A stretch of DNA of 64,000 nucleotides from Escherichia phage vB_ECOLIGBLB0003. The notes under the pieces were generated by a model that had not been told where the DNA came from, did no database searches, and was given only the letters and a program-made list of their open reading frames with translations. The translations under genes were made by a program, and so were the position numbers. Every line of letters starts with the position of its first letter. Positions within the stretch are counted from its first letter, which is position 1. Of the stretch, positions 38,746 through 42,654 are shown one piece after another. The stretch is from the sequence record PV654517. One strand, given 5' to 3'.

Positions 38746-41700
38746 ATGGCTACTTTAAAACAAATACAATTTAAAAGAAGCAAAACTGCAGGTCAACGTC
38801 CTGCTGCTTCAGTATTAGCCGAAGGTGAATTGGCTATAAACTTAAAAGATAAAACAATTTTCACAAAAGATGACTCAGGTAGTGTTATAGAATTAGGTTT
38901 AAAATATGGAGGAACAATTGATGGTTCTTTAACTGTTAATGGAAACATAATTGGAAATTTAACAGGTAACGCTGCAACTGCAACGAAATTAAAAACAGCA
39001 CGAAAAATTAATGGTATATCCTTTGATGGGTCAAAGGACATTACCTTAACTCCATCTGACATAAATGTCAATAGCACAACGTTTATAAAAAATAACGGCG
39101 AATTACCTGTTGATGCTAATTTAGATGAGTATGGGCCTGTTGAAGAATATCTTGGAGTTTGGTCGAAAGCAACTTCAACCAACGCTCAACCAGCAAATAA
39201 ATTTCCAGAACAAAATGCTGTAGGTGTTCTAGAAGTATTTGTGGCCGGTCAATTTGCTGGTACTCAGAGATATACAACTAGATACGGAAATGTTTATATT
39301 CGTTCCTTGACTGCTACATGGAACGGAGTAAACGGTCCGTGGAGTGCGTGGCGAAATATTCAATCTGGTACTCGTCCACTGTCAACAACGATTGATCTTA
39401 ATGATCTAGGAGGCGCTGAACACCTTGGTTTGTGGCGAAATAGTTCAAATTCCATTGCTACCTTTGACAGAAATTTCCCAGAAGAAGGATCGTCCGCTCA
39501 AGGACTTTTAGAAGTATATGAAGGTGGAAACTATTCTCGCACACAGAGATATACGACCAGATTTGGTGTTGTTTATACTCGTTGTCTTACTGCTGCGTGG
39601 GATGCTACTGCTCCTAAATGGGGACCGTGGCAACAAGTCGGTAATGTCACACCAGCGACTTTCTATGACGGAAACCTAAATGATTTTAAAACTCCTGGGT
39701 TATATAATATTTTAGGCACTGATGCCGTTATTAACTGTCCTACCGGTGAAGGTTTGCCGACTGTTATTGTTGGTTTGCTGGAAGTTAAACAGCGCGCTTC
39801 TGGCGGTGCTATTTTCCAAAAATTTACTACTGCCGGAACGGGTTCAACTACTCGCGATCGTATTTTTGAGCGTGCATATACTGGTGGTGCGTGGGGTGCA
39901 TGGAACGAAGTATATACATCTTACTCTCTTCCAATTACTTTGGGTATGGGTGGTATTAAAGCTCAATTAGCGGAGTTAGATTGGCAAACATTTGATTTTG
40001 TTCCTGGTAGTATGTTTAGTGTTCCTTTGAACAAAATAAAGAATATGCCAGCAAATATGAATTGGGGCACGATTGACGGAAACCTGGTTATGTTTTCCGT
40101 TGGTCCTAGCGAACACACTGGCACAGGACGTACTGTTCAGGTTTGGCGTGGAACTGTATCCCAGACAAACTATCGTTATTTTGTCGTTCGTGTATTCGGT
40201 AATCCGGGAAATAGAAGTATCAGAGTTCGTCGTGTTGTTCTTGAAGACGGATCACATACTTGGACTGCTAAACAAGATTTTAATGGCGCAGTTAACTTTA
40301 ACTCTACTGTTAACCTTAATAACACTACCACATTTAAAACAGAAGTTAAATTCCGCTCGTTGAATGCATTCCGTATGTATGGCGGAAAATTTGGTACATT
40401 TTTACGTAATGATGGAGAGAGTCTTTATATTCTTTCCACCGACGAAGATGATCAAGATGGAAACTTTAATACAAATAGACCTTTCCGTTATGAATTAAGA
40501 ACTGGTGATGTTACTTTGGGTGGTGCTAGTGGTGCTAACGTTTTAAAATTAAAACGTGATTCTCTCACCGCATTTTTTGGCGGTGATATTAACATTAAAG
40601 GCACGATGACTTTTGACGCCGGACGTTTAGGATCACGAGATTATTTTAAATTTAACCATTGGGGTGATAGCAATAACGCTCGTGATAACATCATCCAGTT
40701 AGAAGATAGTCAAGGCGCCCATTTTTCCACTGAACGTACTTTAGCGACAGGTGCAATTAAAACTCGTTTCTTTGGCGAAACATTCACTGATGGTACATTA
40801 TACCTAAATCAGATGAATAATAGCTCTGAACGATTCTCTATCAACAATTGGGGAAATTCAGAAGTTGGTCGCGCGGCAGTATTGGAAGTCGGCGATTCAA
40901 AAGGTTATCACTTCTATGCTGAACGCAGGACAGATAACAGTTTGATGTTTGATGTTGCTGGTTCTTTGACCGTGCATGGACCTAGCGGAATAACCATCAA
41001 AAACTCAACTGGTGCACGACATATCTGGTTTAGAGATGATAGCGATGCAGAAAAGGCTGTTATCTGGGCTACAGATGAGGGTATTTTACATATTCGCAAT
41101 AATCATGGGGGTTCATTTAGTCATCACTTCCAGGGTGCAATGATTAAAGTGGGAGAGCGTGTTCCTTATGCCGGAGATCAAGGGCTTATTCGCGGTGAAG
41201 TTTCTGGTGGTGCTTATGTGAATTGGAGAGATCGCCCTGCTGGTTTGTTGCTTGACTGTCAACAAAGCGTTGATAGTGCTCATGCTATTTGGAAAGCGGT
41301 TGATTGGGGGCGTAACTTCATCGCTGCTCTGGACGTTCATTGTCCCGGTGATAGTAATAATACTGCGACAGCGATTCTTCATGTTCAGGCTGCTGATTAT
41401 CAATTCCATGCAAATGGGAGCTTTGATGCCAGTGGCAACGGAAACTTTAACGATGTTTATATTCGATCAGACCGTCGCCTTAAAGACAATATAGAAGATT
41501 ATACCGGAAATGCGTTAAGTTTGATTGGTAAACTGAAAGTGAAAACTTACGATAAAGTTAAATCTCTTAAGGACCGTGAAATTATCGGTCATGAGATCGG
41601 CATTATCGCACAGGATTTACAAGAAATATTACCAGAAGCGATTAATATTTCGAAAATTGGCAATCTTGATAAACCAGACGAAGTTCTGACAATTTCTAAC

Positions 41701-41820
41701 TCCGCTGTGAATGCTCTTTTAATTAAGGCCATTCAGGAAATGAGTGAAGAAATTAAAGAATTGAAAACGCCTTTCTTCACTAAAATTGCTCGCAAAATTG
41801 GTAAATACTTTAAATTCTAA
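38746..41820 (+). CDS. 37: long tail fibre distal subunit gp37 with C-terminal chaperone-like domain
   Basis: 1024 aa (T4 gp37 1026 aa); internal repeats QRYTTR(Y/F)G...; C-terminal ~100 aa ([12 protein letters not shown]...GIIAQDL...KAIQEM) resembles an intramolecular chaperone/S74 peptidase domain. Confidence 0.85.
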
Positions 41821-41853
41821 TAACAAGGGGCATTGCCCCTTTGGAGATAAATT

Positions 41854-42654
41854 ATGGCAGTAGTTGGTGTTCCTGGTTGGATTGGTAGTTCATCCGTAAA
41901 TGAAACAGGACAACGATGGATGAGTCAAGCAGCTGGTCAATTAAGATTAGGTGTTCCTTGCTGGATGAGTCAATTTGCAGGTCGCTCAAGAGAAATAATT
42001 CACACGCTTGGAGCAGACCATAACTTCAATGGTCAATGGTTCCGAGATAGATGTTTTGAGGCAGGTAGTGCACCTATAGTGTTTAATATCACTGGAAATT
42101 TGGTATCATATTCTAGAGATGTTCCTTTATTCTTCATGTATGGAGATACACCAAATGAATATGTTCAGTTGAATATTAGCGGTGGAGCTCATATGTGGGG
42201 CAGAGGTGGACAAGGTGGATGGACTCATTCTGGTGGGGATGGTAATGGTCAACAGGGTGGGCATTGTATTCAAAATGACATTGGTGGTCGATTAAGAATT
42301 AATAATGGTGGAGTAATTTGTGGCGGTGGCGGCGGTGGCGGCGGTATCGCTTATCGTCCTCACTCTGGTGCAAACTGGCAAGATATTGGTGGCGGTGGAG
42401 GAAGACCATTTGGCCCAGGAGGTGGCGGTGGTTATTCAGGAGGTGCTGCTTCTTATGATGGCCCAGGAGGCGGCTATAATTATGGTAATGCTCACTCTGG
42501 TCAGGGTGGCGACGCTGGCGGAAATGGACAAAATGCCTGGAATGATGGCGGTAAAGTACTAAAAGTCGGGGCTGGCGGGGCGGCAGGTTATGCTGTAATA
42601 GGGTCTGCTCCAACATGGCAAAATGTTGGAGCAATATATGGTCCAAGAGTATAA
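41854..42654 (+). CDS. 38: receptor-recognising adhesin gp38 (T2-type, glycine-rich motifs)
   Basis: 266 aa; multiple poly-Gly motifs (GGGGGGGG, GGGGG, GGGGG) separated by short variable segments; immediately downstream of gene 37. Confidence 0.75.
42310..42530 (+). repeat. GGC/GGT-rich coding repeats (glycine-rich motifs of gp38)
   Basis: Runs of ggcggtggcggcggtggcggcggt and similar; in frame within gene 38. Confidence 0.5.

Follow-up and report, generated by a model that had tools for sequence, protein, structure and literature searches.

Genes 37 and 38 of the phage analysed here raise the question of whether its long tail fibre ends in a self-cleaving gp37 capped by a gp38 adhesin, or in a gp37 that keeps its C-terminal domain, with a gp38 that serves in assembly like that of T4, and which host receptor an adhesin of this kind would recognise. 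The window, i.e. the whole stretch of 64,000 nucleotides from Escherichia phage vB_ECOLIGBLB0003 (PV654517), belongs to a Tequatrovirus and is 97.9% identical in DNA to Shigella phage SHFML-26 across 24 kb. The module under study consists of two genes:

38746..41820, + strand: gene 37, long tail fibre distal subunit precursor, 1024 aa (ORF, PHROG 1699)
41854..42654, + strand: gene 38, tail-fibre adhesin, 266 aa (ORF, PF05268, PHROG 2056)

The two genes are separated by a spacer of 33 nt, with the holin gene t downstream of gene 38, and the order gene 37 - gene 38 is common to SHFML-11, RB32, T2, T6 and S16. We read the module, with a probability of about 0.9, as the distal receptor-binding end of a T6/T2-class Tequatrovirus long tail fibre, in which a processed gp37 would be capped by gp38. 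In phages of the T2/T6 type, gp37 is proteolytically processed and carries gp38 on its tip (PMC3157838). An earlier note on this DNA had interpreted the module as a self-cleaving fibre with an adhesin, which is supported as essentially right: of the sequence findings that it named as refuting, neither a missing S74-type match nor an alignment of gp38 to the T4 chaperone type was obtained. The label "T2-type" given there holds in the broad sense, but the T6 subtype is seen in the body of gp37 and the N-terminus of gp38 and the RB32 subtype in the gp38 loops, and most of the module is only 35-60% identical to T2 at the nucleotide level. The exact gp37 and gp38 sequences were not found in a collection of 15 billion proteins. 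Processed gp37 with a gp38 adhesin, the S74-type chaperone, the Gly-rich/hypervariable layout and the receptor classes are already published and structurally solved; the practical use of the present assignment therefore lies in annotation and host-range prediction, with little weight for discovery, and the annotation we suggest is a self-cleaving gp37 (mature form 907 aa) with an OmpA-type gp38.

Architecture of gp38 and exchange of its specificity block

For gp38, profile searches returned Pfam PF05268 (GP38) at E 6.8e-68 and 229 bits, against a cut-off of 25. PHROG 2056 'tail fiber protein; host specificity' was matched at E 7.6e-113, and sequence matches to solved structures were obtained with PDB entry 9v85 (E 1.3e-72) and S16 gp38 (6f45_D, E 7.9e-50). 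Similarity to the T4 gp38 chaperone was not detectable (BLASTP best E 0.84). The protein is thus a 266-aa poly-Gly adhesin and not of the T4 chaperone type, as the earlier note had claimed on both counts. The following features were mapped within gene 38:

41854..41979, + strand: N-terminal attachment domain of gp38, aa 1-42, with Trp9, Trp22 and Trp37 (Pfam PF21721, Gp38_N)
42097..42615, + strand: exchanged adhesin block, of SHFML-11/RB32 type in an otherwise SHFML-26-like fibre locus (diagnostic sites)
42199..42588, + strand: receptor-specificity region, aa 116-245, in which Gly-rich motifs and hypervariable segments alternate (Gly-run map, alignments)
42322..42345, + strand: Gly8 run, GGCGGTGGC x2.7 (TRF score 48), the sole true DNA tandem repeat in the module

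The N-terminal domain matches Gp38_N with an E-value of 1.1e-19 (70.6 bits, cut-off 25), and its W9, W22 and W37 are invariant in the alignments of gp38 from the window, SHFML-11, RB32, SHFML-26, T6, T2 and S16. In S16, these Trp residues of gp38 are said to insert into pockets of the gp37 tip (PMC7917993). By homology, the gp38 described here would plug into gp37 via its N-terminal domain (Trp9, Trp22, Trp37) and would present four hypervariable loops on a Gly-rich scaffold to a host outer-membrane protein. S16, a Gelderlandvirus and thus of another genus, likewise combines a Trp-prong attachment domain with a polyglycine-rich receptor-binding domain in its gp38, but the two gp38 proteins are only ~50% identical and differ in their hypervariable loops, and S16 gp37 has 749 aa.

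Gly accounts for 27% of gp38 overall and for 37% of aa 107-266. We counted sixteen runs of Gly-Gly or longer, including one G8 (aa 157-164) and two G5, and the variable stretches are flanked by invariant Gly columns (116-122, 157-163, 179-190, 216-225, 241-245); this architecture of Gly-rich motifs (GRM) and hypervariable segments (HVS) has been described for gp38 (PMC3157838, PMC12032242). At the DNA level, the Gly codon runs of gene 38 span 42181-42579, so that the GGC/GGT repeats reported before at 42310-42530 are present, with an extent given slightly too narrowly. Two open reading frames inside gene 38, one antisense (42299-42646, 115 aa) and one frame-shifted (42320-42562, 80 aa), were rejected as by-products of the GGN codon run; in the annotated relatives that were examined, no additional gene is given within gene 38.

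The specificity block has an ancestry of its own. At all 210 of the 210 sites that separate SHFML-11 from SHFML-26 within 42097-42615, the window agrees with SHFML-11, and DNA identity to SHFML-26 drops to 55-67% in 42196-42645; the diagnostic sites of gene 37 are mostly SHFML-26-like, with the last 675 nt of the gene identical to SHFML-11. SHFML-11 has a divergent N-terminal half of gp37 (69-82% identity in 38896-39645), SHFML-26 has a T6-like gp38 specificity block unlike that of the window, and the combination of gp37 and gp38 seen here is found in neither of them. The gp38 specificity block is swapped in whole from another phage lineage, which is the only local twist of the locus. It represents a clean natural whole-block adhesin swap, in which an RB32-like (OmpA-class) block replaces a T6-like (Tsx-class) block on an SHFML-26-like backbone, and whole-block exchange is the kind exploited in engineering phage host range.

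The earlier note had further taken the poly-Gly runs for hot spots. It is rather unlikely that adhesin diversity is created by recombination or replication slippage active at the GGC/GGT Gly codon runs, and for this window the breakpoints lend the idea no support: the block is uninterrupted from 42097 to 42615, without any change of ancestry within the Gly-rich region, and both of its ends lie outside Gly sequence in conserved non-Gly flanks (aa ~81 and ~255-259). The idea draws on the perfect 9-mer repeat of 24 nt at 42322-42345, on the length of the homologous Gly run, which varies between 5 and 9 Gly among relatives, and on the possibility of crossovers within conserved Gly-rich motifs (Tetart 1998, as cited in a passage of Trojet et al., PMC3157838). 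Synonymous codons of the Gly runs, however, vary freely among relatives (GGT/GGA in RB32 versus GGC/GGT here), so that identical DNA in the motifs is too short and too scattered to make a preferred substrate.

Receptor prediction

Over its full length, gp38 is 99.6% identical in amino acids to that of SHFML-11 and 97.4% to those of RB32 and fFiEco06; in the HVS block, the identities are 99.6% to SHFML-11 and 97% to RB32, RB33 and fFiEco06. The gp38 proteins of RB32 and RB33 also share the length of 266 aa and the Gly-run pattern G8/G5/G5. RB32 is an OmpA-requiring, LPS-sensitive phage whose HVS block carries that specificity over to RB5 (PMC3157838, Trojet et al. 2011). Closely related gp38 proteins share their receptor, and in a set of 223 adhesins the phylogeny of gp38 was a good predictor of it (PMC12032242). 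Given the 97.4% identity to RB32 gp38, for which dependence on OmpA and LPS has been demonstrated, OmpA is the predicted receptor; judged by this homology, the host receptor is most probably OmpA, with some LPS dependence. The alignment of the variable segments with those of relatives, proposed earlier as a route to the receptor, accordingly leads through RB32-type loops to OmpA. T6 gp38 has an N-terminal domain nearly identical to that of the window but Tsx-type loops, and T2 gp38, with FadL/OmpF specificity, is 48-49% identical.

Changes in the loops or a different gp37 tip might retarget the fibre to a receptor other than OmpA, i.e. to Tsx, OmpF, OmpC, FadL or LPS alone, which we consider improbable. 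Window and RB32 gp38 differ by seven substitutions, about three of which fall into hypervariable loops (N175K, G224A, N231H), and in the case of PST and T6 only three loop residues separate the gp38 specificity domains, yet receptor use differs (PMC3157838). The gp37 tip region (41146-41745) of RB32 has just 48-79% DNA identity to the window, and the hosts of the nearest gp38 proteins (Shigella sonnei, Salmonella, E. coli) do not identify the receptor. Against a change of receptor stand the near-identity of the HVS block to those of SHFML-11 and of RB32, RB33 and fFiEco06, the good performance of gp38 phylogeny as a predictor across the 223 adhesins (PMC12032242), and the distance from SHFML-26, whose T6-like, Tsx-type block has a DNA identity of only 55-67% to that of the window.

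The hairpin between genes 37 and 38

Two elements were located in the intercistronic spacer:

41825..41841, + strand: conserved intercistronic RNA hairpin AAGGGGC-ATT-GCCCCTT (sequence; 7 pairs, -10.4 kcal/mol)
41843..41846, + strand: Shine-Dalgarno sequence GGAG of gene 38, 7 nt 5' of the ATG (sequence)

The hairpin lies between the stop codon of gene 37 (41818-41820) and the Shine-Dalgarno sequence of gene 38; a stem-loop had been noted here before at 41826-41840, and its presence holds, with the ends corrected to 41825-41841. Of 27 related loci, 24 have a GC-rich hairpin in this position, with compensatory changes, and 14 distinct fully paired versions occur among these, including those of T2, S16 and T4. 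T4, too, has its GC-rich hairpin directly after gene 37, and a UUCG loop is present in T4, T2 and others. As the surrounding 71 nt show no excess of folding energy over shuffled sequences (z = 0.04), the reality of the hairpin rests on conservation and not on energy. Scanned over its full length, the window gave no Rfam or tRNA match.

Exact late-promoter boxes (TATAAATA) are confined to two positions, 32989 ahead of gene 34 and 38056 ahead of gene 36, with none before gene 37 or gene 38 in the window. The late promoter at 38056 probably drives one joint transcript of genes 36, 37 and 38, and the conserved hairpin would thus sit inside this mRNA. A split ribosome-binding site of the T4 type was considered for it and rejected. 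In T4, a hairpin between the Shine-Dalgarno sequence and the AUG of gene 38 cuts their spacing from 22 nt to 5 nt and promotes translation; here the Shine-Dalgarno sequence is located 3' of the hairpin at a normal spacing of 7 nt, so that this mechanism cannot work.

There is a low probability that the hairpin is an intrinsic terminator or a partial attenuator that lowers gp38 output relative to gp37. In favour of this, the whole group conserves the stable GC-rich stem, which directly follows the stop codon of gene 37, and the S16 structure 6f45 comprises three gp37 chains and one gp38 chain, with gp38 described as monomeric, so that less gp38 than gp37 is needed. An intrinsic (rho-independent) terminator would have at least 5 T in a row behind its GC-rich stem; here only TTT follows the stem, the hairpin is absent from the terminator scan of 38000-44000, and it was rejected as a terminator for want of a T-run. 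Moreover, past the hairpin there is no exact late promoter ahead of gene 38 or the holin gene at which transcription could restart, and the T4 hairpin in this position does not end transcription but promotes gene 38 translation.

It is a similarly long shot that the hairpin is an ancestral element of phages with adhesin-type and with T4 chaperone-type gene 38, which in T6/T2-type phages may tune the ratio of gp38 to gp37, the split site of T4 being a later re-use. If so, ribosomes or polymerase might be stalled or released at the stop codon of gene 37, or the gene 37 part of the mRNA might be protected, and such tuning would suit a fibre with one gp38 per gp37 trimer.

The gp37 precursor and its C-terminal Peptidase_S74 domain

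In the capped fibre that we favour, gp37 is predicted to be cleaved. Three features of gp37 bear on this:

38746..41466, + strand: predicted mature gp37, aa 1-907, ending ...NDVYIR (motif alignment with S16 and fPS phages)
41467..41484, + strand: predicted scissile/catalytic motif S908-D-R-R-L-K913 (alignment; cut expected between R907 and S908)
41467..41817, + strand: intramolecular chaperone / Peptidase_S74 domain, aa 908-1024, 117 aa (Pfam PF13884; release after trimer folding predicted)

The resemblance of the gp37 C-terminus to an S74 chaperone, noted earlier together with peptides that are indeed present, one of them beginning at Ser908 (nt 41467), goes far beyond chance: a profile search against Peptidase_S74 matched PF13884 to aa 908-965 with an E-value of 1.5e-14 and 54.4 bits, above the Pfam gathering cut-off of 22. 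As a whole (aa 908-1024), the domain forms the very C-terminal end of the long tail fibre distal subunit, 117 of its 1024 residues. Sequence matches were also obtained with the S16 gp37 construct 6f45_A (E 7e-7), the tail fibre 8jov (E 0.0026) and, at E 0.006, the autocleavage domain of MYRF (7dc3). The domains of endosialidase, T5 pb1 and MYRF are like that of the window gp37 in their Pfam family, their Ser...Lys(+5) pair and their position at the fibre C-terminus, whereas the fibre domains upstream are unrelated. Past its terminal helix, the window domain has an extra basic tail of 17 residues, which T2 lacks.

In the alignments, the motif SDxR[LI]K is kept in the window, SHFML-11, SHFML-26, RB32, T6, T2 and S16 and is absent from T4 gp37. 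The window sequence DVYIR^SDRRLK aligns with the S16 gp37 cleavage site DLNVS^SDRRIKK and has the same form as DVYIR^SDGRLK of the fPS phages. The spacing of Ser and Lys(+5) in S908/K913 equals that of Ser1264/Lys1269 in T5 pb1, where S1264A stops cleavage (PMC4690869). In S16, the C-terminal intramolecular chaperone of gp37 autocleaves at ...S^SDRRIK, and the gp38 docking surface is thereby exposed (PMC7917993); autoproteolytic release has been demonstrated in the S16 and T5 homologues and reported for T2/T6 (PMC7917993, PMC4690869, PMC3157838).

By homology with these systems, gp37 would be made as a precursor of 1024 aa, the last 117 residues of which, as a Peptidase_S74 intramolecular chaperone, would nucleate folding of the trimer starting from the C-terminus. 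After correct trimer formation, Ser908, activated by Lys913, would cut the chain between Arg907 and Ser908, and the new C-terminal face, made of three ...NDVYIR ends, would be the docking site of gp38. The characteristic fold of this family combines a coiled coil with an alpha/beta domain. A single-sequence AlphaFold2 monomer model of the C-terminal 140 aa had a mean pLDDT of 42; the domain is an intertwined trimer, so that a monomer model is expected to fail. That the C-terminal domain stays in the mature fibre and gp38 is a mere assembly factor as in T4 finds some room in this uninformative fold model but is highly improbable in view of the intact catalytic Ser and Lys, the S74 score well over the family threshold, the cleavage of the S16 and T2/T6 homologues (PMC7917993, PMC3157838), a gp38 that is unrelated to the T4 chaperone and matches solved adhesins, and entry 6f45, which holds both S16 gp38 and the gp37 tip.

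Upstream of the S74 domain, the body of the predicted processed gp37 is of T6 subtype. The full-length protein matches PHROG 1699 'long tail fiber protein distal subunit' (E 2.6e-232) and is 98% identical in amino acids to SHFML-26 gp37 and 72% to T6 gp37, with ~90% identity to the latter across aa 1-690. The distal domain (aa ~690-880) differs from that of T6, which is a point against the favoured reading of the module. T2 gp37 has 1341 aa compared with 1024 aa here, and only the N-terminal 66 aa are clearly common to the gp37 proteins of the window and T4. Direct DNA repeats within gene 37 amount to one weak 26-nt pair, with no repeat structure at the DNA level. One further domain was identified in the body:

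40303..40488, + strand: gp34-like trimerisation domain inside gp37, aa 520-581 (Pfam PF21446, Gp34_trimer, E 1.5e-15)

This domain matches the solved T4 gp34 fragments 4uxe and 5nxf and is 37.5% identical to aa 1023-1102 of gp34 from the same phage.

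The long tail fibre locus

Profile searches placed the module in the long tail fibre region of a T4-like phage, comprising gp34, gp35, gp36, gp37 (the long tail fibre distal subunit precursor), gp38 (the tail-fibre adhesin) and the T holin (Pfam match, E = 5.7e-116), with the following features at its centre:

38746-41820, + strand: gene 37, 1024 aa (ORF call)
41825-41841, + strand: hairpin AAGGGGC-ATT-GCCCCTT, -10.4 kcal/mol (from the sequence)
41854-42654, + strand: gene 38, 266 aa, adjoining gene 37 (ORF call)

Three ORFs (1289, 371 and 216 aa) precede genes 37 and 38, and one of 218 aa comes after them. 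gp37 matched the PHROG 'long tail fiber protein distal subunit' (E = 2.6e-232), and gp38 the profile 'tail fiber protein; host specificity' (E = 7.6e-113). The Shigella phage SHFML-26 (Tequatrovirus) is 97.9% identical to the window over 24 kb; no public record identical to the window was found, and the exact gp37 and gp38 sequences did not occur in a collection of 15 billion proteins. Scanning of positions 1-64000 yielded zero tRNA genes and zero Rfam families above threshold.

The gp37/gp38 module is a known system that has been characterised structurally, the phage is close to identical with genomes already deposited, and the overall finding of the earlier note was correct and well observed. 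The closest solved system is the gp37-gp38 complex of the Salmonella phage S16; the closest sequences are those of SHFML-26 for gp37 and of SHFML-11 (also a Shigella phage) and RB32 for gp38. The label 'T2-type' given to the module holds for its class; by subtype, the fibre body and the attachment domain of gp38 belong with T6, and the specificity loops with RB32. Apart from the S74 fold, on which the structure model gave no clear answer, all the features that define the S74 domain and the gp38 adhesin family and can be checked in silico are present; the locus was also tested for a gp38 of the T4 chaperone type, for a split ribosome-binding site like that of T4 and for an intrinsic terminator, and none was found.

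Two further domains were observed in the fibre proteins. Residues 58-125 of the fibre hinge protein gp35 (36909-38024) matched Pfam ILEI (PF15711, 'interleukin-like EMT inducer'; E = 4.8e-8, 33.8 bits against a cut-off of 27), an unexpected label for a phage hinge protein. Within gp37, residues 520-581 (40303-40488) are a copy of the trimerisation domain from the C-terminus of gp34 (Pfam Gp34_trimer, E = 1.5e-15); as residues 513-592 of gp37 share 37.5% identity with residues 1023-1102 of the phage's own gp34 (36097-36336), this module is common to the proximal and distal half-fibres.

The C-terminal domain of gp37

The C-terminal gp37 peptides that had been likened to S74-type chaperones are present in the sequence, and the likeness was borne out by a Pfam Peptidase_S74 ('chaperone of endosialidase') match above the curated cut-off (aa 908-965, E = 1.5e-14, 54.4 bits against 22). 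Among solved chains, three matched the last 143 residues in sequence: 6f45_A (E = 7e-7), the construct crystallised from S16 gp37; 8jov (E = 0.0026), a further phage tail fibre; and 7dc3 (E = 0.006), the domain by which myelin regulatory factor cleaves itself, already known as a relative of the S74-type domain in eukaryotes. The AlphaFold model built from the single sequence of the gp37 domain reached a pLDDT of 42, too poor for use.

The domain starts, after NDVYIR, with S908-D-R-R-L-K913, and SDxR(L/I)K occurs at the equivalent position of gp37 in SHFML-11, SHFML-26, RB32, T6, T2 and S16; in the alignment, T4 gp37 lacks the motif. Cleavage at this motif has been described before: S16 gp37 autocleaves at DLNVS^SDRRIKK, which releases the chaperone and exposes the docking face for gp38, and for Yersinia T4-like phages the cut is predicted at DVYIR^SDGRLK (PMC7917993), almost identical to the motif found here. 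In T5 pb1, Lys1269 activates the scissile Ser1264 five residues before it, and the S1264A exchange blocks cleavage (PMC4690869). Because of this published precedent, we predict by homology that gp37 would be cut between Arg907 and Ser908, giving a mature protein of 907 aa and a released fragment of 117 aa.

The last 17 residues of the chaperone domain (aa 1008-1024; 41767-41817) form a basic tail rich in aromatic residues, which is common to SHFML-11, SHFML-26, RB32 and T6, loosely similar in S16 and missing in T2.

gp38: architecture, origin and predicted receptor

That gp38 is of the adhesin type and not a T4-type chaperone, as proposed from the sequence, was confirmed by its matches to two Pfam families, GP38 (E = 6.8e-68) and Gp38_N (E = 1.1e-19), and to the solved structures of gp38 in 9v85 (E = 1.3e-72) and, for S16, in 6f45_D (E = 7.9e-50); similarity to the T4 gp38 chaperone was not found. 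Glycine makes up 27% of the protein and 37% of residues 107-266, with runs of eight, five and five. When gp38 was aligned with its counterparts from SHFML-11, RB32, SHFML-26, T6, T2 and S16, the N-terminal tryptophans W9, W22 and W37 and the glycine-rich motifs (GRMs) were invariant, and the stretches between the GRMs variable. Judged from these alignments, the layout is the published one of five GRMs and four hypervariable segments (PMC3157838; PMC12032242).

For the origin of the module, each site of genes 37 and 38 was compared with its counterparts in SHFML-11 and SHFML-26. Gene 37 sides with SHFML-26 (98% at the amino acid level) with some patchwork in 39700-40230, and its 3' end (40996-41745) is identical to both phages. 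In gene 38, the stretch 42097-42615 carries the SHFML-11 state at all 210 of 210 informative sites, and 42196-42645 is only 55-67% identical to SHFML-26, whose gp38 block is T6-like and of the Tsx class. The phage therefore combines an SHFML-26-like backbone with an RB32/SHFML-11-like specificity block, and 42097-42615 reads as a natural whole-block receptor swap. The exchange ends in conserved non-glycine flanks, at about codon 81 and codons 255-259, outside the glycine runs, in agreement with the laboratory chimeras of Trojet et al., of which zero recombined between GRM1 and GRM5 (PMC3157838). The sole true DNA tandem repeat lies at 42322-42345, and among 27 relatives the homologous glycine run varies from 5 to 9 residues with differing synonymous codons. 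Given these breakpoints, the single repeat and the varying codons, the proposal that the GGC/GGT repeats are hot spots of recombination or slippage is not supported by this locus; the verdict is limited to it, and such hot spots may still occur in general.

A search with gp38 gave roughly 780 phage records that encode such a protein. OmpA is the best prediction for the receptor, since gp38 is 99.6% identical to that of SHFML-11 and 97.4% identical to those of RB32, RB33 and fFiEco06, RB32 requires OmpA, with LPS composition affecting infection (Trojet et al., PMC3157838), and closely related gp38 proteins share a receptor (Lutz et al., PMC12032242). Moving the RB32 hypervariable block into RB5 transferred the OmpA/LPS specificity (Trojet et al., PMC3157838). 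As a caveat, three of the seven differences from RB32 gp38 fall in loops, where such small changes can alter specificity (PMC3157838).

Eight IMG/VR contigs of 144-183 kb (loci L017-L022, L024 and L026) encode short gp38-like proteins of 166-174 aa without poly-glycine runs; the N-terminal attachment domain (53-58% identity, aa 1-64) is all that they have in common with gp38, which points to a different receptor-binding domain on the same docking module. Alternative-frame ORFs over the glycine-rich part of gene 38 (42299-42646, - strand, 115 aa; 42320-42562, + strand, other frame, 80 aa) were rejected as genes, being explained most simply by the repetition of GGN codons.

The hairpin between genes 37 and 38

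The stem-loop reported to separate the two genes is present and conserved. Four bases separate it from the gene 37 stop codon, and a single base from the GGAG of gene 38, whose spacing to the ATG is 7 nt. The energy of the hairpin does not stand out when the 71 nt around it are shuffled. Of 27 related loci, 24 have a GC-rich hairpin at this position, in 14 distinct versions, all fully paired; the loop is UUCG or UACG in several of them, and both sides of the stem have changed in T2, S16 and other loci, i.e. by compensatory changes. In the remaining three, the 45 nt ahead of gene 38 contain no GC-rich hairpin, and the sequence there (...AAATAATGG) suggests a stop/start overlap.

An intrinsic terminator was rejected, as only three T follow the stem and the hairpin is absent from the terminator scan. 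T4 also has a hairpin at this position (L028, the T4 locus, 7628-7647), where it brings a distant Shine-Dalgarno sequence (SD) within 5 nt of the gene 38 AUG (PMC3014915). The T4 hairpin lies between SD and AUG, forming a split ribosome-binding site, whereas the T6/T2-type hairpin precedes the SD; with the SD downstream of the hairpin, the T4 bridging mechanism is inapplicable here and was rejected. We infer that the most likely role is in mRNA stability or in modulating gene 38 expression within a joint 36-37-38 transcript. No exact late promoter was found before gene 37 or gene 38, the nearest being at 38056, before gene 36.

The hairpin is conserved whichever type of gene 38 a phage carries (this phage, T2, S16, T4 and the IMG/VR loci L006-L026), and its distribution suggests that a single ancestral element has been put to two uses, that of T4 and that of the T6/T2 type. 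Directly after gene 35 lies a terminator-like hairpin with a T-run and a UUCG-type loop (38028-38049), followed, before gene 36, by the exact late-promoter box TATAAATA (38056-38063); near the fibre genes, an exact box occurs otherwise only at 32989, before gene 34.
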